Assembly: GCA_963804165.1 (NCBI GenBank)
Contig: CAWDPO010000043.1
Location: 320,001-384,000, forward strand
Length of the DNA stretch: 64,000 bases
Origin: an uncultured delta proteobacterium
GTDB lineage: Bacteria; Desulfobacterota; Binatia; UBA9968
Reading direction: 5' to 3'
Shown here in pieces: positions 11,549-47,468 of this stretch (positions within the stretch are counted from its first letter, which is position 1; every line of letters begins with the position of its first letter). Both the position numbers and the translations under genes were made by a program. The notes below the pieces were generated by a model. It worked only from the letters and a program-made list of their open reading frames with translations. It was not told where the DNA came from and did no database searches.

Positions 11549-13289
11549 ATGACAGTCGATCCCGTAACTCTACAAGTCATCCAAGCGCGTCTCGCCGGCA
11601 TCGTCCAGGAGATGCAGAACTCGCTGTTCCGCACCGGCTACTCGACGATCATCCGCGAGTCGCAGGACGCGAGCTGCGCGATTTTGAATCGCCAGGGCGA
11701 AGTCGTCGCCCAGCATGTCGTACTGCCGCTGCACATGGGCGCTTTCCCGGCTTGCGCCGCGGGTATTTTCAAAAATTACAGCGTCGACGAGGTGCACGAA
11801 GGCGACGCCTTCATCACCAATCATCCGTATCTCGGCGGCAGCCCGCACGCGCCGGACATGGCCGTGCTCTCGCCGATTTTTTTCCAAGGGGAATGGGTCG
11901 GCTTCGCCGCCAATCTGGCGCACAAGAGCGACATCGGCGGTCCGGTGCCGGGTAGTTGCTGGAGTCAGGCGCGGGAAATTTATCAGGAAGGTCTGCACGT
12001 GCCGCCGATCAAATACGTGCAGCGATATCAAACCAGTAAGGACATCGAAGCGCTGCTCGGCTGCAACAGCCGCACGCCGGAGCTCGTCGTCGGCGATCTG
12101 CGCGGCCAGGTCGGCGCAGCGCGCCTCGGCGAGAGACGCTTCCAGGAAATGATGGAGCGTTACGGCAAAGGAGACCATACTCAACTCATTCGACAGTTGT
12201 TCGCGTTGACCGAAGCCAAGGTGCGCACGGAGATCGCTTCTTGGCCCGACGGCGGCGGCGAAGGCGAACGCTTCGTCGACAGCGACGGCATCGATCTCGA
12301 CAAGCCGGTGCGCCTGCACGTGCGCATGGAGAAAAAAGGCGATCATCTGCTTTTCGATTTCACCGGCTGCGCCGATCAAACCAAAGGCCCGGCGAACATT
12401 CGTCCAACCATCGTGCGCGCGGCCTGCTGTTACCTGCTCACTTGCCTCGTCGATCCCGCGCTCGCGATCAATTACGGCTTGGCCAAGTGCATCGACATCA
12501 AGGTGCGCGAAGGCAGCGTGGTCAATCCGCGCTTTCCCGCGCCGGTGAATACCTACAACCCGACCGTGCACGCGCTGGTGGAATCGTTGCTCGAAGCATC
12601 GAGCCAAATCACGCCGCACAAGAAAGTCGGCGACGGCTGCAGCAGCCGCTCGATCATCATCGGCGGGCGCAGCAATAAGACCGGCAAGGGCTACGTGCAA
12701 TACGAGATCTTCGGCGGCGGCTCCGGCGGCACGGAGCGGCAAAGACGGCGTGTCGGGCACCAACGTGAATCAGTCCAATGCCAAGATCGCGCCGATCGAA
12801 ATCATCGAGTCGGAGTTTGCCACCCGCGTCAGGCGATTTGAGTTGATTGCCGACTCCGGCGGCCCTGGCCAGTTCCGCGGCGGCTTGGGCTTTGTGCGCG
12901 AGTACGAAGTCCTCGACAACGACGCGCGTTTTTCGCTGCGCTCGACCAAACACACGGTCGCGCCCAAAGGCATCGACGGCGGCATGGACGGCAAAACCGG
13001 CCACTGCACGTTAAATCCCGGCAAGCCCGAGGAACGAGTCATCCCGTCGCGCTTCTCCGATCACGTGCTTCATCCCGGCGAAGTTTTCAGCCTCGAAACT
13101 CCCGGCGGCGGCGGTTTGGGCGATGCGCTCGAGCGCGATCCCGAACGAGTCCTCAACGACGTGCGCAACGGCTACGTGACGCTGAAGAGAGCGCGCGAAG
13201 TCTACCGGGTCGCCATCGACGCGGTGGACGGCGATTTCGTGCTGAACGAAGCGCAGACGCGCGAATTGCGCACTCAAAGACAGGCATGA
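11549..13289 (+). CDS. hydantoinase B / oxoprolinase subunit, copy 1 (frameshift near 12730)
   Basis: DPVTLQVI, TGYSTIIRESQDAS, NHPYLGGSPHAPD, AHKSDIGG, DSGGPGQFRGGLG, TPGGGGLG. Confidence 0.92.
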
Positions 13290-13400
13290 GGCGCGAGGCT
13301 TGAGGCATGAGTAAGAATCGAGACCGGCTGCTGATCTTTTCTATACTGCTCGCCATATTCGTTGTATTTCCTCACGCCTCACGCCTGACGCCTCACGCCT
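13282..13400. repeat. Inverted 7-nt tandem array (GAGGCNT)n ... (CCTCACG)n
   Basis: aggcatgaggcgcgaggcttgaggcatgag ... cctcacgcctcacgcctgacgcctcacgcct. Confidence 0.75.
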
Positions 13401-13403
13401 TCC

Positions 13404-15166
13404 ATGTCCGTCGATCCCATCACCTTCAAGTCATCCAAGCCCGCCTGGCCGGTATCGTCCAGGAGATGCAAAACTCGCTCTTCCGCACGGGCTATTCGAC
13501 GATCATTCGAGAGTCGCAGGATGCCAGCTGCGCGATATCTGAATACCGACGGCGAAGTCGTCGCGCAGCACGTCGTGCTGCCGCTCCACATGGGCGCCTT
13601 TCCCGCCTGCGCCGCGGCGATACTCAAGAGCTTTCCGCCGAGTGAAATTCATGAAGGCGACGCCTTCATTATCAACCATCCTTATCTCGGCGGCAGCCCG
13701 CACGCGCCCGACATGGGCGTGCTGACGCCGATCTTTCTACCAGCGCGAATGGGTCGGCTTTGCCGCCAACATGGCGCACAAGAGCGATATCGGCGGCACT
13801 GTGCCGGGCAGCGGTTCCGGCAACGCGCGAGAAATTTACCAGGAAGGGCTCCATCTGCCGCCGGTCAAATTCATGTCCCGGCTGCCAGCCGGTAAAAGAA
13901 ATCGATGCGGTGATCACCGCCAATAGCCGCACGCCGGCGCTGGTGATCGGCGATCTGCGCGGCCAGGTCGGCGCCGCGCGCTTGGGCGAACGGCGAATTG
14001 CCGAGCTGATGGATCGCTACGGCAAGGCCACGGTGCTGGAATCCACTGAGCTATTGTCGGCTTACACCGAAAACCGCGTGCGTCAGGCGATCGCCTCCTG
14101 GCCCGACGGCGAATCCGAAGGCGAGAGCTTCGTCGATCACGACGGCATCGACCTGACGAGGCCGATTCGAATCCATGTAAAAGTTAAAAAACTCGGCGAC
14201 AAACTCCACTTCGATTTTAGCGCTAGCAGCGATCAAACCCAGGGACCGGCGAATATTCGCCCGCCGCTGGTGCGCGCCGCCTGCGCTTACTGCCTGGTCG
14301 CGCTGGTCGATCGCTTTCTGCCGATCAACCAAGGCCTCGCCCGCGATGATCGACGCCACTTTTCGCCAGGGCAGCGTCGTCGATCCGCGTTTCCCGGCGG
14401 CGGTAAATACCTATATGCCGACGGCGCTCACTGTCGCGGAAGCAGTCCTGAGGGCGCTCGCCCCGTTCGTTCCGGAAAAGCGTATCTCCGGCGGCTCGGG
14501 CAGCGCCGCATTGGTACTCGGCGGACGCGACGCCCGGAGCGACCGCGCTTTCGTGCACTACGAAATTTTCAGCGGCGGCACCGGCGCGCGATCCGGTAAA
14601 GACGGCGTCTCGGCGACCGCGTTCCATCTGAGTAATTGCAAGACCGCGCCGATAGAGATCATCGAGTCGGAATTTCCGGCGCGCGTCGAGCGCTTCGAAA
14701 TGATCCCGGACTCCGGCGGCGCCGGCGAATGGCGCGGCGGCTTGGGTTTCGCGCGGGATTATCGCATTCTCGCCGACGACGTGCGTTTTTCCTTGCGCAC
14801 CGACAAGCATGCCGTCGAGCCCTTCGGCAGCTGATCGATGGCCTGCCGGGCGGCAAAGGCGCATTGTATCATCAATCCCGGAAACCAAGGAGCAAAAACA
14901 CCTGCCGTCGCGTTTCGGCGACCACCGCCTGCGCGCGAACGACATCGTCCGCGTCGAGCGCCCCGGTGGCGGCGGGCTTGGCAATCCGCACGCGTGCGTC
15001 CGGTCGAGAGCGTGCTCGAGGACGTGCGCCAAGGCTATGTTTCCGCCGCGCGGGCGCGGTCCGATTACGGGGTCGCAGTCCGGGACGCTCGACGGCGGAA
15101 CCCGAGGTCGACGAGGCCGAAACTCAAGTTTTACGAGGAAAAAAGTTAAAAAAACGTTGGCAATAG
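13404..15166 (+). CDS. hydantoinase B / oxoprolinase subunit, copy 2 (multiple frameshifts)
   Basis: Same motifs as copy 1, spread over several overlapping ORFs. Confidence 0.88.
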
Positions 15167-34182: not shown

Positions 34183-34483
34183 AGCACTCCCCTACCTTTC
34201 CCCGATTTGCTCTTCCGCGCATCTTTCTCCTGGTCCTGGGAAGGATTGTAGACGAGTGCATTGCTATACGACAAGACTAGAGGTTAGAGGAAGTCTTATG
34301 GTCTTAACAGAGGGGAACTTAATGGCACATGCGGTAAAGAATAGTCCCATAAACATCGGCGCAGTTGGCAGCGAGAACTCGGTTTACATTAAAAAATACA
34401 ATCGCGCACAGAGTGAGCAAGAACTCTAGATTGAAAATTTCGCTCACAACTTTTCGAAGGCAGTTTACCCAGTTTCGACGCAG

Positions 34484-34549
34484 GATTGAACTAAACGACG
34501 CTTCTGACGAATCTCGTGAGATTCGTTTGAAGGAGAATTCAGTTCAATT
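34484..34549. repeat. dif-like site pair A+B
   Basis: GATTGAACTAAA-CGACGC-TTCTGACGAATC tcgtga GATTCGTTTGAA-GGAGAA-TTCAGTTCAATT. Confidence 0.85.
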
Positions 34550-34554
34550 CCATG

Positions 34555-34647
34555 GTTAAACGTTCGCGTTGAGCGGCACGCCCGCACGGGAGCCCATTGG
34601 CGAGCCACCGCCGCTTCCGGCGCGTCCGCTCCAACGCGGGGTTAGCT
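34555..34647 (-). other. integron attC site
   Basis: Minus strand AGCTAAC-cccgcgttggagcggac ... gccgctcaacgcgaac-GTTTAAC, ~20 bp after the stop of 34667..35182. Confidence 0.85.
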
Positions 34648-34666
34648 GGCACCAGAGCGCCATCGC

Positions 34667-35182
34667 CTATTTTGCGCGTCGAAGGACCAAGTGGACGATT
34701 CCTCCGCCGACAGCCGAAACAGGGCTTATGATCTTTAACTTATCACCCGAGATTTCGATGAGCCGAGACTGATCCTCGCCGTTCCAGTTTGGGTAGGTAC
34801 TCCCATCGTAGTGCAGATTTATCTTCCGTTCTTTCTCGTCGATAGAATACCTGCCGAAATAGGCGATGCTTCCTTGTACGATTGCTTTGTTCTCCTCTGC
34901 AGTCCCCGCCATGCGATTGTTTGAAGCAAACTTCGGCAACGTCCCACGTTGAAGCACCAGGATAAAGCGTCCGTTTGCATCGTATACGACCATGCCTTTT
35001 GGATTAGAGCCGAATGGTTCCAATTTCTTTCCGTCTTGGTCTACGTATTGCGCTACTGCCATCCAAGTACCTACGATTTGCTTGCCTAGCGATTGGGCAG
35101 TCGCCGACACACACAAAAATGTGCTTAGCATAGCCAGTGCAACTGACAAGGTTCCGCGCAAACGGCATTGATACGCCTTCAT
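34667..35182 (-). CDS. lipocalin-like domain secreted protein (gene cassette)
   Basis: Signal peptide; IVGTW, FGSNPKG, SIAYFGRY, STYPNWNG. Confidence 0.85.
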   Translation of the reverse strand: MKAYQCRLRGTLSVALAMLSTFLCVSATAQSLGKQIVGTWMAVAQYVDQDGKKLEPFGSNPKGMVVYDANGRFILVLQRGTLPKFASNNRMAGTAEENKAIVQGSIAYFGRYSIDEKERKINLHYDGSTYPNWNGEDQSRLIEISGDKLKIISPVSAVGGGIVHLVLRRAK

Positions 35183-35228
35183 AGTGCCTCCCTGTTGTTA
35201 AGTAACGACCGTATGACGCCTCCGAGCC

Positions 35229-35272
35229 AGCTAACTATTAAGTGAACTGCCGGCTCTTGCGGCGGGTTATCC
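35229..35272 (-). other. truncated attC / cassette 5' core site
   Basis: Minus strand GGATAAC-ccgccgcaagagccg..cacttaata-GTTAGCT; GTTAGCTGGC is the exact complement of GCCAGCTAAC at the cassette 3' end. Confidence 0.7.
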
Positions 35273-35427
35273 GGGAACCCGAAATCTGAGAAGAGCAAAA
35301 TGAACTGAATATCCGTCAACAAGCCGTGCTTTGTCAATGGTTTCACCCGACAAACGCTGCCCGCGGAGCGGTATATCCAGATATCAGCCCGCGGTGTATC
35401 TTGGCGGATCAACCGAAATCGCCGTAG

Positions 35428-35457
35428 GATTGAACTGAACGACGCTTCAATTCGATC
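35428..35457. repeat. dif-like site A
   Basis: GATTGAACTGAA-CGACGC-TTCAATTCGATC. Confidence 0.85.
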
Positions 35458-37520: not shown

Positions 37521-37651
37521 CGGCGTTCTCCTTTTGCTCTCAGACGTGTGAAGAAATCAAATCCTAATGGTTGGGTGTCTGACCAACGAACTCGCGGCTC
37601 CGGACGGTTTACCTTCGTGATGAATGGCTTGTCAATATGTCCACGCCCTCA

Positions 37652-37719
37652 GATTGAACTTAACGACGCCTCGGTTCGATGAGTTCCAAGATTGGCTCGT
37701 AGGAGAATTCAGTTCAATC
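37652..37719. repeat. dif-like site pair A+B
   Basis: GATTGAACTTAA-CGACGC-CTCGGTTCGATG agttccaa GATTGGCTCGTA-GGAGAA-TTCAGTTCAATC. Confidence 0.85.
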
Positions 37720-37774
37720 CTGGTTGTTTTCACGTCTGAAACCGATCTGAAAAATCGCCTCGATAAGAACGAAT

Positions 37775-38773
37775 CTACTTGATCACCCTATCCGCCCGCG
37801 CGAGCACGTTCGGTGGAATCGTCACGCCGATCTGCTTGGCAGTCTTCAGATTAATTATCAGCTCAAACTTCGTCGGTTGTTCGACCGGCAAGTCGGCTGG
37901 CTTCGTTCCCTTGAGAATCTTGTCGACGTACGTGGCAGCGCGACGGAGCAGGTCGGCAAAGTTCGGTCCATAGGCCATGAGTCCCCCAGCCTTCTCCGCA
38001 TGCTCTCTTGTGTCATAAACCAGCGGCAGCCGGTTTTTTGCCGCGAAGTCTGCGATTTGTCTTCCGTAGGTAAGGACCGTTGGGTTTGGCACCATAAGAG
38101 CGCCCGGCCGTTCCCGAATCGCGGCCTCGAAAGCACTCGCTAGCTCTGTGGGATTTCGGACCTCCAGGGATTGAAGGGTAATCGCCAATGCCTGGGCCGC
38201 ACTCTGCACCTCTTTGAATCTGATTCTGTTGGCCGAATTAGCCGGATCCCAGATGAAGGCTACTCGTGTGACGTTCGGCAATATTTCTTTGAGCAGTTCC
38301 AATCGTTTTCCATCTAAGTCAGGGGACAGAGTGGTCAACCCCGTAATATTCCCACCTGGCCGTGCGAAGCTAGCGACGAGTCCGACGGCAACCGGATCTG
38401 CTACCTCTGCCATGACAATGGGGATAGTGCTGGTCGTGTTCTTAACGGCCTGGATCGCTGGTGTAGTTCCCGTAACGATCACGTCAACTTTAAGCTGGAG
38501 CAGCTCGGACGCGAGCACGGGCAACCGATCGCTTTTTCCCTCAGTGTAGCGATACTCAATGATGATGTTCTGTCCCTCAACATAGCCAAGTTCCCGCAGA
38601 CCTTGCCGGAATGCCTCGATACGGGCTGAGTAAGAGGAAGGGGAGCCGGGAACTAGAAAACCTACGAGCGGGACTTTCTTCGGCTGCTGCGCCTCGGCTA
38701 TGACCGCAACAGCAAGCAGCACCACTACAAACAGGATTGATAAGATCCAAGCTTTCCTCATTGCACACATCAT
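37775..38773 (-). CDS. ABC_sub_bind-type substrate-binding protein, paralog 1
   Basis: AEAQQP, GLRELGYVEGQNI, DPVAVGLVASFARPGGNITG, DLPVEQPTKFEL, LARADRVIK. Confidence 0.92.
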   Translation of the reverse strand: MMCAMRKAWILSILFVVVLLAVAVIAEAQQPKKVPLVGFLVPGSPSSYSARIEAFRQGLRELGYVEGQNIIIEYRYTEGKSDRLPVLASELLQLKVDVIVTGTTPAIQAVKNTTSTIPIVMAEVADPVAVGLVASFARPGGNITGLTTLSPDLDGKRLELLKEILPNVTRVAFIWDPANSANRIRFKEVQSAAQALAITLQSLEVRNPTELASAFEAAIRERPGALMVPNPTVLTYGRQIADFAAKNRLPLVYDTREHAEKAGGLMAYGPNFADLLRRAATYVDKILKGTKPADLPVEQPTKFELIINLKTAKQIGVTIPPNVLARADRVIK

Positions 38774-38873
38774 TTGTTATGTATCACGCGGGCGGTAGTA
38801 GAAAAAGGTAAGATTTACGACGGAAGACGACAGGTATTCGTCGAGCGGAAACACAAATTTTTAGCGTAAGTAA

Positions 38874-38939
38874 GATTGAACTGAACGACGCGTCAGACAA
38901 ACCTTGCGAGATTGAGTCGTAGGAGAATTCAGTTCAATC
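38874..38939. repeat. dif-like site pair A+B
   Basis: GATTGAACTGAA-CGACGC-GTCAGACAAACC ttgcga GATTGAGTCGTA-GGAGAA-TTCAGTTCAATC. Confidence 0.85.
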
Positions 38940-38966
38940 CTAGCATCGCCGCTTCTCTTTCTTTGC

Positions 38967-39974
38967 TCACTTGATCACTTTGTCCGCTCTCGCCAGCACA
39001 TTCGGCGGAATCGTCAGGCCGATTTGCTTAGCGGTTTTCAGGTTGACGATGAACTCAAATTTCTTTGGCTGCTCGACGGGAAGATCGGAGGGTTTGGCGC
39101 CCTTAAGGATCTTGTCCACAAGAACGGCGGCGCGTCTGTAGGGTTCGATCCGGTCTGTTCCGTAGGACATGAAGCCGCCGAGCTCCACAAAATCTGCCAG
39201 ACCGGCTATTGCCGGTAGGCGATTTTTTATCGCCAGGCTTATGATTTGGTTTTGATTATTAGCGATCAACCCGCCTCCCGTCACGAAGAGAGCGCCGCTC
39301 CGTGCCTTCACTGCATCTCTGAACCCGCTCTCGATATCGTTGGCGCTGCTTACCGCCATGGAATGAAGTTGTAGACTGAGTTCCTTTGCTGGCGGTTGGC
39401 TTTCTTTCCATACTTGCGTCGAGCCCGGATTCTGCGAATGCCACAGCACTGCAACGCGGGAGAGCTTGGGAATAGTCTCCTTGAGTAACTCCAGCAGTTT
39501 GCCCGCTAACACCCCGCCAATCGAAGTGAAGCCTGTGATATTGCCCCCAGGCGACGCCAAGCTGTCAACCAACCCAAGCGAAACGGGATCGGATACCGTT
39601 CCCAGAAAGACGATGGGAATCGTCCTAGTAGCGTTTTTCGCGGCTCGGGTGTCATTTGCCCCCGGCGTGACGATCACGTCAACCTTGAGCCGAACCAACT
39701 CAGCAGCAAGGGACCGAAGACGGTCGAGATTGTGCTCTGCGTATCGGAACTCGAAAGCTATATTCTTGCCTTCGACATAGCCGAGTTTGAGAAACTCTCG
39801 CCGAAATGATTCGAGCCTAGCCGAAGGGGAACTGGCTCCTCCGAGAATTCCAATTATCGGTATTTTCGCCGGCTGCTGCGCCTCGGCGACGACTGCAGCG
39901 GCGAGCAGGAACACTACAAGCAGGATTGAAAAGACCGGTTTCCTCATTGCACACATGCATTCGCTATGTATCAC
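38967..39974 (-). CDS. ABC_sub_bind-type substrate-binding protein, paralog 2 (start uncertain)
   Basis: Same motifs as paralog 1. Confidence 0.92.
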   Translation of the reverse strand: MIHSECMCAMRKPVFSILLVVFLLAAAVVAEAQQPAKIPIIGILGGASSPSARLESFRREFLKLGYVEGKNIAFEFRYAEHNLDRLRSLAAELVRLKVDVIVTPGANDTRAAKNATRTIPIVFLGTVSDPVSLGLVDSLASPGGNITGFTSIGGVLAGKLLELLKETIPKLSRVAVLWHSQNPGSTQVWKESQPPAKELSLQLHSMAVSSANDIESGFRDAVKARSGALFVTGGGLIANNQNQIISLAIKNRLPAIAGLADFVELGGFMSYGTDRIEPYRRAAVLVDKILKGAKPSDLPVEQPKKFEFIVNLKTAKQIGLTIPPNVLARADKVIK

Positions 39975-40054
39975 GGGGGCGGTAGAAGAGAAAAGTGAGA
40001 TTTACGTAGAAAGGCGGCAAGGATTCGTTGAATAGGAAACCCGAATCAGCCTGA

Positions 40055-40084
40055 GATTGAACTGAACGACGCTTCAGTTCGATC
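40055..40084. repeat. dif-like site A (near-perfect palindrome)
   Basis: GATTGAACTGAA-CGACGC-TTCAGTTCGATC. Confidence 0.85.
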
Positions 40085-40264
40085 AATCTGCTAGGGCTTG
40101 AGTATTTATTAGTAATTGGAGTCAGATGGGCCACCGTAATATAGAAAATCTATATCTTCAGTTTTTGCACGAACCAAACAGCCCCAAGGGTGAGGACCAA
40201 CACGTTTCCGTTTCGGACAGATGAAGGCGGATAGTTCTGGCAAAGTTGTGACAAAGTAAGTCGA

Positions 40265-40645: not shown

Positions 40646-43600
40646 CAAATTTCTCTTGGTTGAGCGGCAGAGTAAAAGTGAATGTACTGCCCTTGCCGAC
40701 TGCGCTTTCCACCCAAATCTTCCCGCCATGCAGTTCGACAAACTTCCGAGTGAGGGTTAATCCGAGTCCCGTCCCTTCGCGTTTTTTGGAATAATCGGTG
40801 CCCACCTGACGAAACTCTTCAAAGATCGTCTCTTGGTTTTCCGGGGCGATGCCGCTCCCCGTGTCGCTCACGGAGATCTCTACCGCTCCGTTGGTGAGCG
40901 CGGCATCGACGTCGATACGTCCACCTTCCTCAGTAAACTTGACTGCATTCGATAAGAGATTCAAAAGAATTTGCTTGAACTTTCTCTCGTCACCGATGAC
41001 CTCGCCCAACCGCTCGTCTACGGTATGCCGTAGCATGACACCGTGCCGTGTCGCCCGTTCTCGTATGAGAATCAGCGCGTTGTCGATCGCAGTTGGTATG
41101 TCAAACTTCGTCAGATCCAATTCCATCCGCCCCGCCTCGACTTTGGACAGATCCAGAATATCGTTGATCAGCGAAAGAAGATGGCGCCCTGAGGAGACGA
41201 TATCGTCCATATACTCGTTCTGCTTGTCGTTCAGTTCGCCGAACAGCTTCTCCGAGAGCACTTCCGAGAATCCGATGATAGCGGTCAATGGCGTGCGCAG
41301 CTCGTGGGACATGTTGGCAAGAAATTCTGATTTATGCCGGTTAGCCGTCTCAATCTCACGGCTTTTGTCCTCGATCTCACGAAACAACCGGGCATTTTGG
41401 ATCGCGAGGGCGGACTGAGTCGCAAACGTCTGAAGCAGATTCACAATTTCCGGTTCGAAGTTTCCAGCCTGCTTCCGCCAAACGGTTAGACCTCCCATGA
41501 TTTGCTGTTCGCGGAAAAGCGGGATCGACAGAAGAGATCGATATCCCAGCCGCGTAAGCATCGGCCGCACTCTCGTCCCGGTGTATTCACGCTGATCTAA
41601 GATATCCGGGACCTGGACTGGCGCGCGTGTCGTTACCGCTTGTCCTGTAACACCTTCACCCAAGCGTATCGGCGCTGCCCGAAGCGCATCGACCACTTCT
41701 TCTTCCATCCGGTGGCTCGCTCTCAGATGAAACTCTTGAGTTGATTCATCGTATTCGTAAATGACGCCGCAATCGGTTCCGGAAAGTTGGACGGCGTGAG
41801 CAACAATAGTGGCGAGAACCGTTTCGAGATCCAGAGTGGAGCTGACCGCTTGACCGACTTCGCCTAAGGCTTTGAATTCCCCAACGGATCGAGCCAACTC
41901 GCTTGTCCGCTCTTCGAGTTCTTGAAACAGCCGACGTTCTCGATGGCGATCACCGCTTGGTCGGCGAAGGTTTCGAGCAGCTTGATCTGCGCCGCGGTGA
42001 AGGGGCGTACCTCGGTGCGACGTGCGATCAGTAGCCCCAATGAGTTCCCCTTGCTGGCGAAGGGGAACGCCTAAAAGGTGCGCCAGTTCGCTGACGGAAC
42101 CCAACTATTGGGATAATCGTTCTGCTGCGCGGCAGGTCGGGAATGTGCAGCGTCCCATGCTCGCGCATCCAGCGGATGACTGTCGGCTCATCGATACTGA
42201 TCTCGACCCGCCCAGCTGGGTATGGATATCGGACCAAAATGAGCCCGCGAAACCAGTAGCGTTTCCCTCGCGGAGCCGCAGTCACCACGTCATCAATCCC
42301 ACAAACCCGGGCGGCGCTCTCGACGATGGCGTCGAGCACCGGCTGCACGTCCGTGGGCGAGCGGCTGATGATGCCGAGCACCTCGGCTGGTTGCGGTCTG
42401 ATGCTCCAGCGCTTCGCGCAACTCGCGTTGCGCTCTTGCAGTTCCTTGAAACAGCCGCACGTTCTCGATGGCGATCACGGCTTGAGTCGGCAAAGGTTTC
42501 AAGAAGCTTGATCTGCTCGTCTGTGAAAGGACGAACTTCCAGCCGGCGGATCGTTGATCACTCCGATAGGCACTCCCTCGCGCAAGAGCGGTGCGGCCAA
42601 TATCGTTCGAATGCCTGGCGCTCCGTGAAGCTCACACGCTCAGGAAAATCTTTTGCGACCACTGCGGCTAGATCCTCAATGTGAATCATCCGTCGCTCGA
42701 GCAACCGCAGCGACCAATGACTGACTGCCATCGATGCTGAAATCAACGCAGCTTCCACGGCTGATGGCAGCCGTAATGCGCCGCGTGTCTGAAAGCATCA
42801 TCTCCTTCGACGTAGTCGAATCGTTGCGTCCTCCGCGTCACACACCCGCGCGGCGTTTTCCGCGACCACATCCAGCACCGGATGGATATCCGTCGGCGAG
42901 CTGGCGATGACACCCAGGATCTCAGCTCGTCGCCGTCTTGCTGCTCCAACGATTCCTTGAGTTCTTTGAACAGACCGCACGTTCTCGATGGCGATCACCG
43001 CCTGGTCGGCGAAGGTTTCGAGAAGTTTGATCTGCGCCGGAGTGAAGGGGCGCACCTCGATGCGTCGCGCTTCCAGATTCGTCCAATGAATTCCTCTTGC
43101 TGAACGAAGCGGAGTGGACAAGTAACGTGCGAAACCCGCTGACCAGCACCCAATCTCGGGAAATCGTTCTGCGCAGCACGGACATCGGTGAACGTGGAGC
43201 GTGCCATGCTCGCGTATCCAGCGAAACCATGGCCCATCAATACTGATCGTCGACCCGCCCAGCAGGTATGGATATCGGACCAAAATGAGCCCGGGCGACC
43301 ATACTTTCTCCCTCCCGGAGTCGCAGCATTACATCATCAATTCCGCAAACCCGTGCTGCACTCTCGACGATGGCGTCGAGGACCGGCTGCACGTCGGTCG
43401 GCGAGCGGCTGATGATCCCGAGCACCTCGGACGTCGCGGTCTGATGCTCCAGGGCTTCGCGCAATTCCGCATTGCGCTCGCCGAGCTCTTTGAACAACCG
43501 CACGTTCTCGATGGCGATCACGGCTTGATCCGCGAAGGTCTTCGAGCAGGGCGACCTGCTTGTCGTGCAAACGGTCGTACCTCTGTCCGGCGGATCATGA

Positions 43601-45686
43601 TGGCGCCGACGGGGAATCCCTCTCGCAATAGCGGAACCGCCAGCAACGTCCGAATACGCCAGCCGCTCGTCGGTGCGCCTGACCTCGGCGTAGTCCTCGT
43701 CTAGCACGGCCAGGCTGTCGTGGATGTGGACGGGCTCGCGCTGGAGAATGGCTCGGCCAATCAGCCAGCTGCGATCGATCGGGCGAGTCTCGCCGACCGC
43801 AAGTATTGGGGAGACCACCCCATAGCTTGCTACCTTCCGCAGGTTGTCGCCCTCAACCCGATAAATCTGCGCGTCACTCGAATCACATAATCGGGCCGCA
43901 TTTTCGGCCACAGTGTCGAGTACCGGCTGGATATCGGTCGGCGAGCTAGCGATGACGCCCAGGATCTCACTGGTCGCAGTCTGTTGCTCCAACGCCTCCT
44001 GTGGAGTTCTTGGAACAACCGCACGTTCTCGATGGCGATCACGGATTGGGAAGCGAACGTTTCGAGAAGCTTGATCTGCTTCTCTGTGAACGGGCGAACC
44101 TCTTTACGGCGGATATGAATCGTCCCGATAGGAATTCCCTCGCGCATCAACGGCGTGGAAAGCATTGTCCTGACACCGAGACTTCTAGCGTACGTTGCTG
44201 GAAAGTCATTCTCTGCCAATGCTGCCAAGTCATGAATATGAAGAGTTCGCAGATCTATCACGGTTCGGCCGGGTACGGAGTCGCGATCCATTGGCACGAG
44301 CCGACCCTCACCCCGCCGTGTCGGCAGCGACCCGTAGTTGGCCACCGATAGAAGCTTGTCGCCATCAATGCGATGAATCACGGCGTCGGTTGCGTCGCAC
44401 AGTCGCGCTGCATTCTCCGCCACTATATCCAGCACTGGCTGTACGTCGGTCGGTGAGCTGGCGATCACGCCCAAGATTTCACTGGTAGCCGTCTGCTGTT
44501 CCAACGCCTCTTTAAGTTCTTGGAACAGCCGAACGTTTTCGATAGCAATCACCGCCTGATCAGCGAAAGTCTCCAGCAACTTGATCTGCACGGGGGTGAA
44601 GGGGCGCACCTCAATGCGACGCGCGTTCATCGTTCCAATGAGTTCTCCATGTTGGCGAAGTGGGACGATCAGGAAAGTACGTGACCGAGCGCCGGCTGAG
44701 GAACCCAGTGTGGGAAAGTCGGTTTGCTGCGCGCGGATATCGGGTATATGGAGCGTGCCATGCTCGCGAATCCAGCCAAAATGCACCTCATCAAGACTGA
44801 TTTTCAGCCGGCCAGGGGCTATTGCCACAGGACCAAAATGAGCCCGTGCAACCATCGCGTTCATTTCAATCAGTCGGAGGACCACGTCATCAACCCCACA
44901 AACCCGCGCAGCACTCTCGACGATTGCGTTCAGCACCGGTTGCACATCCGTCGGCGAGCGGCTGATGATACGGAGCACCTCGGACGTCGCAGTCTGATGC
45001 TCCAGAGCCTCGCGAAGTTCCGAATTAGATGATTCCAGCTCAGTGGTCTTTTGTGTGAGTTCTTGAAATAGCCGAGAATTCTCGATCGCGATCACCGCCT
45101 GGTCAGCAAAGATTTCCAATAGTTTGATTTGTCGTTCTGAGAAAGGACGAACTTCCGGACGGCGGATGAGGATCGCTCCGATGGGAACACCCTGTCTAAG
45201 CAACGGTGTTGCGAGTGCAGTCCTATTGCCGTGGCGCTGAGCAAGTTCCCGTGCCCGTGGATACTCTGATACTGGGGTATTGAAGATGTCATGAATATGG
45301 ATCGTTTGTCTGTCCAGCATCGATCGTCCCGCGAGTGTGCCCCGGTCAAGCGGGACATGCTCCTGGCGGGGATTGACAGAAACGGGACCGTAGGATGCGA
45401 TAACCCCCTGCCCGTCGTCATGAAGACGGAGTATTTGCGCGTCGATAGAATCGCACAACCGCGCTGCACGCTCGGCAATCGCGTCGAGTAAAGACTGAAG
45501 ATCCGCTGGTGCCTTGGCAATCATCCGCAGGATGTCGCTGGTGGCTGTCTCCCGTTCGAGTAACTCGTCGCGCTCGCGCCGCAATGACTGAATATTTTCC
45601 GCTTGTTTCGGCTGAGACTTTTTCACCACAGACCGGCGCGGTTTTGCCTTTTTACTTTTAGAGCCCTTTTGGGTCGTGGTTGCCAT
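40617..45686 (-). CDS. cytoplasmic sensor histidine kinase with about 8 GAF domains (frameshifts 41.9-44.0 kb)
   Basis: Repeated [19 protein letters not shown]; [14 protein letters not shown]-box, [16 protein letters not shown]. Confidence 0.92.
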
Positions 45687-46064: not shown

Positions 46065-47468
46065 ATGGCAAAGCTGAAGGAGCCGGTCGTAACGATGCCC
46101 AAAGACCTCCGCAGTTTCATCGCCCAACTCGAATCCAAATATCCCGAAGAAGTCGCCCGGGTGAGGAAACCGATCTCGCCCCGTTACGAGATCACGGCTT
46201 TGCTAACTCAGTTGGAAAAAGCAAGCGTTTTCCGCTGCTGTTCTGTGAGAACGTCGAAGGCAGCGATGCGCCGGTCGTCATCAATGTGCAAGCGAGCCGA
46301 AAGCTCATGGCGTTGGCACTGGAGTGTAAGCCTGAAGAATTCGCCGCCAAGTTCGCCGAACGCCAGAGTAAACCGATCGCGCCGGTGGAAGTGACCGATG
46401 GGCCGGTCCAGGAAATCGTCAATCTCGGCGATGATGTGGATCTGACAAAAGTGCCGCTGCTCACGCACTACGACGTCAACGCCGCGCCCTTATATCACGG
46501 CGGGCATCGTCGTCGCTGCCGATCCCGACAGCGGCGTCAGAAACACCAGCTATAACCGACTGATGATGGCGCGCAAACGCGAGCTGCGCATTTTCATGGC
46601 CATCGGCCGCCATCTCTGGACGCTGCACAACAAAATGGAGCGGCGCAGCGAGCCGCTCCCCATCGCTATCGTCGTCGGCGTGCATCCATTGTTCTCACTC
46701 GGCGCCCAAGCGTTTACGCCGTCGACGGACGACGAGTACGCCGTCATCGGCGGCATGATGGGCGAAGCCTTGCGCGTGGTGCAAGCGAAGACAGTACCGA
46801 TTTTGGTTCCTGCCGACGCGGAGATGATGATCGAAGGCAAGATCCTGCCCAACGTCCGGCGCGAGGAGGGACCGTTCGGCGAATTCACCGGCCACGCGGT
46901 AGCCAAAGACGATCGCCAGGTCATCGAAGTCACCGCGATCACGCACCGGAAAAACTATATTTTCCAAGACGTCCACGCGGGCTACACCGAGCATAAGCTG
47001 ATGGGCGCAGTGCCGCGCGAAGCCGCGCTGATCAAAGCCGTGCGCCAAACCGTGCCGACGGTGAAAAATGTCTGCATGCCGGTGTCGGGCAACTGCCGCT
47101 TTCATGCCTATATTTCGATTGCCAAGCGCACGCCGGGTCAGGCCAAGAACGCCATCTGCGCCGCCTTCGCCTCCGACATGCTGCTGAAGCACGTGATCAT
47201 CGTCGACGACGACATCGACGTCTTCGATGAAGAACAGGTGCTCTGGGCGGTATCGAACCGCTTTCAAGCCGATCAAGGCTTGGTCGTAATTGCCAATGCG
47301 CAAGGAAGCGAGCTGGATCCCTCCGCCGGCCCCGGCGGCGTCAACGCCAAGATGGGCCTGGATGCGACCAAACCGCTCACAGGTTTTGCTCCTGAGCTGA
47401 GAGTGCCCGAAGAAGTAATGAGGAAGATTCGACTCGAAGATTTCTTACCGAAATTCGCTAAAAAGTAG
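46065..47468 (+). CDS. UbiD-family decarboxylase (frameshifted)
   Basis: KDLRSFI, VDLTKVP, EEGPFGEFTG, VDDDIDVFD, GLDATKP. Confidence 0.92.

Follow-up and report, generated by a model that had tools for sequence, protein, structure and literature searches.

A lone integron cassette beside a candidate attI, bracketed by ends of a tyrosine-recombinase element, in an uncultured Binatia-type genome

How does a single integron gene cassette come to lie in a chromosome that shows no integrase gene, between sites that appear to belong to a different recombination system? The question is raised by a 64-kb stretch of DNA, here called the window (positions 320001-384000 of the 436-kb contig C43), from G000, a 7.5-Mb metagenome-assembled genome (MAG) of 46 contigs, with a completeness of 80.9% and a contamination of 5%. 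In this window a gene for a lipocalin-like protein is followed by a palindrome resembling the attC recombination site of integron cassettes, and the whole stands between repeated motifs termed A and B. The evidence set out below indicates that this is very probably a true cassette at an attI-type junction, that the integrase gene has been lost, and that the unit is bracketed by A/B ends; the best explanation of its sequence is a remnant of a chromosomal integron of a kind common in the Binatia-type lineage. Read along the minus strand, the order is a putative vestige of the integrase gene intI, an attI-type element with a promoter-like site, one first-position cassette, and its attC (Table 1). 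Comparisons extended to 90 genomes of the family, G000 included (89 others), and to 123 genomes of the order; four unpublished genomes (G052, G055, G074 and G093) enter the tallies of IntI in the order, B motif, attI element, recombinase and empty scaffold, and no locus described in detail stems from them.

The R and L boxes, AAC...GTT triplets and an extrahelical base near L'' make up the anatomy of an attC (Nivina et al. 2016, PMC5027507). The free energy of the palindrome behind the lipocalin-like gene is uninformative in so G+C-rich a stretch, being not significantly different from that of shuffled sequences (z -1.47 and -0.79), and covariance models were therefore built from the attCs of other genomes: R1, from nine sites in three genomes (two MAGs reached through homologues of the gene, and one same-genus genome with intI), and R2, from 40 sites among R1 matches in 15 loci of other genomes, one of the 40 being the reverse strand of a near-palindromic site. 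Neither contains any sequence of G000, and together they replaced two custom palindrome scanners that had proved unreliable, missing known sites and returning mostly chance matches genome-wide. With R1, the entire window gives a single match at E ≤ 10, at 34555-34646 on the minus strand and over the full length of the model (33.2 bits; E 2.1e-5 in 256 kb and 6e-4 for the whole 7.5-Mb genome, these E-values being rough). R2 scores the site at 37.5 bits, again over the full model (E 1e-4 genome-wide and 5e-6 in another search), and adds one weak match in the window at 46847-46880 (15.1 bits, E 0.98); in the whole-genome searches with both models, the best 150 of several thousand first-pass candidates were scored. 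No covariance-model match appears on the plus strand at this position, so the strand of the attC is that of the gene. On that strand AGCTAAC (34641-34647) forms the R'' box and GTTTAAC (34555-34561) the R' box; in the predicted fold the L boxes make a 12-13-bp stem whose L'' arm has a single bulged base, by our reading a C on the bottom strand, which is about 1.4 kcal/mol more stable than the top strand. Rfam, applied to the whole window at gathering thresholds, returned no match and no intron, a null that says little since Rfam appears to have no attC family. By covariance models and homology, though not by fold energy, 34555-34647 is a genuine attC. The first-pass annotation of the window had placed a 93-bp attC here, 3' of the gene and on its strand, and both placements stand; the contrary outcome that it had considered, an attC covariance search without a hit at 34555-34647 and homologues of the gene never found with attC, was not observed in either half, as R1 and R2 match the site and homologues occur in attC arrays.

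The remainder of the unit is built as a cassette should be, with one ORF (open reading frame) that faces the attC, has a ribosome-binding site of the AGGGAGG type upstream, and lacks a promoter of its own. The N-terminus of the encoded protein reads as a putative Sec signal peptide, and the protein is probably secreted; a sequence search of solved structures returned nothing at E ≤ 0.01. On either side of the gene, the 10-mers GTTAGCTGGC (34641-34650) and GCCAGCTAAC (35226-35235) are exact inverted copies of each other; GTTAGCTGGC, which stands 52 nt before the lipocalin ATG, is fully complementary to the first ten bases of the palindrome, as the first-pass annotation had seen. An inverted repeat of equal length arose by chance 22 times among 5000 shuffles and 46 times among 3000 random placements, and by itself is moderately unusual, a modest argument that becomes decisive in combination with an alignment to a second copy of the cassette.

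That copy is found at the closest of 19 public-genome loci encoding relatives of the lipocalin-like protein (L026; 83% amino acid identity, on a contig labelled Gammaproteobacteria). Its DNA is 84% identical to the window over the 5' leader, ORF, 3' leader and attC; the homology starts at GTTAGCTGGC (edge G/TTAGCTGGC, the slash here and below marking the crossover) and stops at the attC R' box, the flanks on both sides being unrelated, and the L026 unit has an attC on either side. It is these homology boundaries, rather than the inverted repeat alone, that settle the status of the cassette. More distant homologues lie 3-4 kb from intI genes on the same contigs (L036, 62% amino acid identity, and L029, 73%, with intI scores of 469 and 475 bits), separated from them by co-oriented attCs, and two further relatives (L030 and L042) also show attC arrays. 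Taken together, the model matches, the L026 boundaries and the presence of homologues in complete integrons say that gene and attC are a true mobile integron cassette, otherwise ordinary, as the first-pass annotation had proposed.

What lies upstream of the cassette had been described as a truncated second attC, at 35226-35272. This was rejected: R2 run unfiltered finds nothing second in C43:352940-356980 at E ≤ 1, and the stretch folds no better than shuffles (z 0.31 and -0.97). It corresponds instead to the recombination core of a conserved element. Approximately 33 of the 89 other family genomes match window positions 35230-35400 at 69-90% identity (the best five candidates per genome were scored), and G000 itself has two further copies, on contigs C23 and C30 (98% and 94% identity). 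Alignment of 11 copies shows about 175 nt conserved up to AATAG/TT, followed by total divergence, each copy having its own TTRRRY start past G/TT (TTAGCT, TTGGGC, TTATCC, TTAGGC, TTAGCC, TTGGAC, TTAGAG). In one relative (G039) an intact intI, encoded on the same strand, ends about 30 nt before the element starts, and in another (G053) a remnant of intI, 26 residues long, precedes it; of the eight loci with a locatable junction, seven have a co-oriented attC 0.5-1.1 kb downstream (six of seven without the window). Within the element, TTGACA-18 nt-GATATT is the sole promoter-like site that a scan of the 1.1-kb region returned, against a mean of 0.7 in shuffled sequences; its two hexamers are conserved across the 11 aligned copies. 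We read the 175-nt element as an attI with a cassette promoter (Pc), from an integron subclass in which intI, attI and cassettes are co-directional, and regard the promoter-like site as a candidate Pc of the sigma-70-like type. If the upstream element is an attI with its promoter, the window holds an integron platform without its integrase (attI, Pc, one cassette, attC), in which IntI would have inserted the cassette by attI x attC recombination and the attI promoter would transcribe it to yield a secreted lipocalin-like protein.

The absence of intI, noted in the first-pass annotation for the window, extends to the assembly, where no match to the integrase profile TIGR02249 reaches the cut-off of 265 bits (best 104.9 bits) and every match skips model positions 182-240, the IntI-specific insertion. 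The cassette would consequently be mobile only with IntI supplied in trans, which might reside in the 19% of the genome that was not assembled or come from a different cell. Eighteen nucleotides next to the attI-type element align with the termini of relatives' intI genes, and from this short alignment we infer a vestige of the last few codons and stop; at locus L016 intI ends about 30 nt before the core of the element, and at locus L131 an intI remnant remains. The lineage is rich in integrons: of the order's 123 genomes, 33 have IntI above the cut-off, and within the same genus an IntI match at E ≤ 1e-40 is given by 15 of 30 genomes. G000 has co-oriented cassette arrays at C15:27146-30834 (five to six model-supported attCs) and C34:24299-36600 (at least ten), and just upstream of the latter array is a 39-residue intI remnant, 79% identical to the IntI of a relative (C34:24299-24415). 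A complete integron of a related genome (L045, at G047:C23:68000-86508) has intI and the attC top strands on one strand and, between its cassettes, two copies (86% identical) of an A/B-ended recombinase element, one of them directly after a short attC. No paper linking Binatia with integrons or attC was found in the open literature, to which all of our literature searches were confined, subscription journals being outside their scope.

The A and B sites share a plan, two 12-nt arms in inverted orientation around a 6-nt spacer, and differ in the spacer, which is CGACGC in A and GGAGAA in B. Within two mismatches of the motifs, G000 has 60 copies of A and 54 of B, and the paired A.B element next to the attC has a fold much superior to those of shuffled sequences (z -3.4 and -3.7). 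The B motif is present in 61 of the 90 family genomes, with zero control matches. In five of the 90, a gene for a 307-aa tyrosine recombinase (PF00589, PF02899) takes the place of the 30-nt centre between the spacers, and at five of seven recombinase loci the start codon has a B end about 50 nt ahead of it and the stop codon an A end 8-10 nt behind it. We conclude from this replacement that a recombinase element of about 1.1 kb, intact in few relatives, has A and B as its two ends, and that the 69-nt copies are its miniature derivatives. The autonomous, recombinase-bearing copies lack the inner arms. Neither a literature search with the A/B motifs, which gave only one unrelated primer match, nor one on integron, tyrosine recombinase and miniature inverted-repeat transposable element (MITE) found a description of an A/B-ended element.

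The exact B 19-mer occurs in 58 public-genome stretches, about four being expected by chance by our own arithmetic, and the named contigs are mostly labelled as Candidatus Binatia or 'delta proteobacterium' MAGs. It is also found (loci L065-L122) on MAG contigs labelled Acidobacteriota, Verrucomicrobiota, Actinomycetota, Bacteroidota, SAR324 and Syntrophobacteraceae, which could reflect horizontal spread or mis-binning; matches in two Planococcus isolates are probably due to chance. Other identities considered for the repeat were discarded. The 70-nt repeat is not the attC of a sedentary integron, as no copy matches the attC model and its anatomy (a 13-bp stem, a conserved 6x6 internal loop, a centre replaced by a recombinase) contradicts that reading; nor do its conserved flanks indicate a REP/terminator-type element (REP, repetitive extragenic palindrome) or coding sequence, since they are the leader and 3' end of substrate-binding-protein paralogues. 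The 278-310-aa tyrosine recombinases of G000 itself were likewise rejected as the A/B enzymes, being of a different family, with only about 30% identity to the recombinase that A/B sites flank in relatives; at least three of them adjoin IS91-type Y2 transposase genes (ORFs of 391-396 aa, one checked against Pfam).

Cassette and A/B element meet at a fixed spacing. Between the 7-mer R' box of the attC (34555-34561) and the end of the outer arm (34551) the distance is 3 nt, and to the conserved GTTCAAT (34548) it is 6 nt, in agreement with the short attC-to-B distance reported in the first-pass annotation. Elsewhere in G000, a B end follows 5-6 nt after the R' 7-mer at six of the nine solitary attCs examined (a count that leaves out the two weakest solitary matches, E 0.26 and 0.98) and at none of the 11 attCs examined in the C15 and C34 arrays. 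Among relatives, an attC supported by the model stops 5-6 nt short of the B end at two of the five autonomous copies that possess both ends, and in G047 the first cassette after intI is followed by what is, by eye, a degenerate B-like site. The link between attC and A/B is systematic, not a one-off. A constrained-fold scan beside B sites supplied useful candidates together with false ones within substrate-binding-protein genes.

A second unit of the same design, on contig C23 of G000 (Table 1), has A, intI vestige and attI 98% identical to those of the window, and the bases past the crossover and next to B, TT(T)AACCATGGA, are common to both units; the cargo differs, being a trypsin-like peptidase gene on C23. 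The junction between A and the vestige recurs at C23:259524 (98%) and at about C30:154990 (94%). With less certainty than attaches to the presence of cassette, attI-type junction and brackets, this suggests that the bracketed platform as a whole underwent copying and that an integrase afterwards replaced its cassettes; loss of the integrase gene would have occurred where the vestige meets the A end of the second element. Events could have run in either of two ways, A/B-ended elements having inserted into and truncated an integron, or the module system having captured an integron fragment. The first-pass idea that integron cargo was captured, linking two site-specific systems, is therefore upheld for the true cassette, its A/B bounds and the systematic association of the two systems (six of nine against none of 11, and the two autonomous copies in relatives), and falls short in that the enclosed unit exceeds a cassette, comprising attI, promoter-like site, cassette, attC and intI vestige.

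Table 1. Features of the bracketed unit in the window and of the second unit on contig C23 of the same genome
Feature	Position	Strand	Basis or remark
attC of the cassette, 93 nt	34555..34647	-	R1 33.2 bits, R2 37.5 bits, stem fold, homology to the L026 attC
Gene cassette, 674 nt, from TTAGCTGGC... to the G of R'	34561..35234	-	Homology bounds against the L026 cassette
ORF, 171 aa, Lipocalin_5	34667..35182	-	Pfam PF13924, E 9.1e-23
attI-type element, crossover G at 35235 (AATAG/TT)	35235..35408	-	Family-wide conservation; beside intact intI in G039
Promoter-like site, TTGACA-18 nt-GATATT, candidate Pc, pointing into the cassette	35308..35337	-	10/12 consensus score, conserved hexamers
Putative vestige of the intI 3' end, last few codons and stop, 18 nt	35409..35426	-	Aligns with intI termini of relatives
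Miniature A.B element, 69 nt	34483..34551	+	Fold z -3.4 and -3.7; consensus from genome copies
A core of the miniature: outer arm, spacer CGACGC, inner arm	~34484-34513	+	Followed by a short loop
B core of the miniature: inner arm, spacer GGAGAA, outer arm	~34520-34549	+	Repeat reading
Lone A site: outer arm, CGACGC, inner arm	35427..35457	+	Abuts the intI vestige; no B partner following
C23 unit: B	256830		Motif match
C23 unit: attC	256852-256932		attC model
C23 unit: cargo, gene for a 252-aa trypsin-like peptidase	Between attC and 472-aa ORF		PF13365
C23 unit: 472-aa ORF between attI and cassette	257849-259267	Opposite to cassette	
C23 unit: attI-type element	259328-259500		Followed by the intI vestige and A at 259524

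Several observations weigh against this interpretation of the locus. On the integron side, each R box of the attC is one base off the consensus RYYYAAC / GTTRRRY, and R1 and R2 are custom models, not those of IntegronFinder; the contigs labelled as other phyla are MAG contigs that may be mis-binned; the intI vestige comprises only about 18 nt. One of the eight junction loci has no attC downstream, most copies of the attI element are without a recognisable intI, and the attI core stands beside intI in only one of the 12 intI loci examined, so that it is the attI of one integron subclass at best. On the side of the brackets, the 307-aa recombinase is confined to the five family genomes mentioned above and is not in the 81%-complete assembly of G000 (best 29-40% identity); no target-site duplication is seen at the bracketed unit; an exact-pattern search for the empty scaffold, attI joined directly to B, gave none in 90 genomes; and the C23 unit has its 472-aa ORF, which may be an insertion sequence, between attI and cassette on the opposite strand.

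Among the alternatives, the one to be taken most seriously, which takes the first-pass interpretation at its word, overlaps partly with the explanation preferred here: A and B could be an active cassette-exchange system in which the 307-aa recombinase acts on A x A and B x B, the integron fragment having been captured as cargo. The architecture of the sites speaks for it, in that A and B can each be read as a full core (12-nt arm, 6-nt spacer, inverted 12-nt arm), that co-oriented arrays of sites recur at a spacing of about 1.15 kb around substrate-binding-protein genes, that the recombinase genes replace the 30-nt centre exactly between both spacers, and that two units of G000 have common scaffold ends with different interiors. 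The last point is explained equally well by IntI-mediated turnover of cassettes, however, and the autonomous copies lack inner arms, so that the reading as complete core sites fits the miniature copies only. Moreover, neither a recombination product nor an empty site or circular form was seen (the attI-to-B pattern numbering none in 90 genomes), and the cognate recombinase is missing from the assembly. We consider active exchange possible but improbable. A wider synthesis may be offered just as tentatively, as one that we would sooner doubt than accept: a new family of small tyrosine-recombinase elements, many of them miniatures, would home to a point 5-6 nt past R' and bracket attI-cassette-attC units into integrase-less mobilisation units, which would be copied as blocks while their cassettes were exchanged by IntI in trans. 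As the ends carry different 6-nt spacers, such site pairs could support a natural form of recombinase-mediated cassette exchange.

The cassette might, on another account, have been placed alone at a secondary genomic site by an integrase, in which case there would be no platform and the upstream DNA would be ordinary chromosome. Cassette insertion by integrase outside att sites has been reported (bioRxiv 10.1101/2022.09.11.507474), and the single attC and missing intI would suit such an event. This is nevertheless very unlikely: the 175 nt upstream are a conserved element that ends exactly at G/TT in at least eight loci with different cassettes, and that in G039 follows an intact intI. Still less probable is a chimaeric or mis-binned contig, in which a cassette of another organism was co-assembled into the MAG. 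The 5% contamination of the MAG and the Gammaproteobacteria label on the contig of the nearest relative of the cassette (83% amino acid identity) would allow it, as would a DNA search of the other 89 family genomes that gave no match to the lipocalin gene or its attC among the matches listed; yet the cassette sits within a 436-kb contig, lineage-specific sequence continues unbroken on both flanks (the attI element and the A/B sites), and both junctions fall exactly at integron crossover points. A last reading, in which the 93-nt palindrome would be no recombination site but a terminator of transcription or a G+C-rich hairpin formed by chance, can be dismissed as barely credible, for although its free energy is no better than that of shuffled sequences, the covariance-model matches are strand-specific, L026 holds a homologous attC with the homology stopping at R', and the hairpin has no T-run 3' of it and drew no call in a terminator scan.

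If the locus is taken as an integron remnant bracketed by A/B ends, comparison with described systems brings out what is familiar in it and what is not. Its cassette matches the textbook form in the R and L boxes, AAC/GTT triplets, L'' bulge, promoterless ORF and a start complementary to R'', and differs in nothing essential, the window attC having R boxes one base off each and a C as its bulge. In 'inverted integrase' integrons, such as that of Treponema denticola, intI is co-directional with the cassettes; the order intI, attI, cassettes on one strand in G039, and attC top strands running with intI in G083 and G047, resemble this arrangement, the likeness being one of gene order only. IS1111-attC insertion sequences and group IIC-attC introns insert inside the attC, by means of a DEDD transposase or as a retro-homing ribozyme. 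The A/B element is like them in being a putative mobile element found at attC sites, but is unlike them in lying outside R' by 5-6 nt and in having a PF00589 tyrosine recombinase. Both kinds are mobile elements at integron attCs (PMC3001079).

Clusters of attC sites lacking an integrase (CALIN), defined as at least two attCs within about 4 kb and no intI (Cury et al. 2016, PMC4889954), resemble the window unit in having no intI nearby and a platform that has probably decayed. The C15 and C34 arrays of G000 are true CALINs; the window unit has one attC only (R2, filters off) and is outside the definition, and since it retains attI and promoter, unlike most CALINs, it would be better described as an 'integron minus integrase' than as a stray array. 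Parallels for the bracketing are the MITE-integron-MITE structures and integron mobilization unit (IMU) reviewed by Domingues et al. 2012 (PMC3575428), in which a defective integron likewise lies between short non-autonomous inverted-repeat copies, the genome that holds them having no gene for their enzyme. The known cases involve class 1 integrons, transposase-type MITEs and target-site duplications, whereas the window unit has the ends of a tyrosine-recombinase element, no duplication that could be seen, a half element (A only) as one of its brackets, and the other element at a fixed 5-6 nt from the R' box of the attC. The bracketing of an integron unit by A/B ends looks new, its mechanism being a matter of conjecture from sequence.

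The cassette documents integron activity, and an apparent sharing of cassettes across phyla, in an uncultured soil lineage. To our knowledge, the attI of the majority of integrons is not known, and the locus provides a candidate attI and promoter for a subclass in which intI and cassettes are co-directional, as well as an instance of a platform that keeps attI and a promoter-like site while the integrase is lost. Most lone attCs in G000 have the end of a second element, one with a tyrosine recombinase, at a constant distance behind them, and if that element does mobilise the unit, platforms as well as cassettes could spread with no need of Tn402- or Tn7-type transposons.

A and B sites are also found in other settings. 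Elements combining a 296-299-aa tyrosine recombinase with a 396-aa IS91-type transposase (Y2_Tnp + Zn_Tnp_IS91) interrupt A or B sites at C23:251628-252700 and 259524-260560 and at about C24:174640-174660, always at the same position of the outer arm, giving hybrid sites in which an arm of a second type is present (GGACTAAACC...). In the window itself, the region 37650-40085 holds paralogous genes for ATP-binding cassette (ABC) substrate-binding proteins on the minus strand (37775-38773 and about 38960-39950), which have in common a conserved leader of about 100 nt; A.B elements lie between and after these genes at 37652-37721 and 38874-38941, and an A-only site lies at 40055. Relatives (for example at G049:C50) have long co-oriented arrays of similar A.B/substrate-binding-protein units spaced at about 1.15 kb.

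Two further sets of repeats were recorded in the window. A tandem array at 41890-45600, with units of about 520 bp and 1040 bp at 60-84% identity (repeat families D1-D4, D9, D10, D14 and D16), looks like diverged paralogous small genes. At 11570-14830, a tandem duplication of about 1.86 kb at 72-88% identity (D5, D8, D11, D13, D15 and D18) is probably a pair of paralogous genes.

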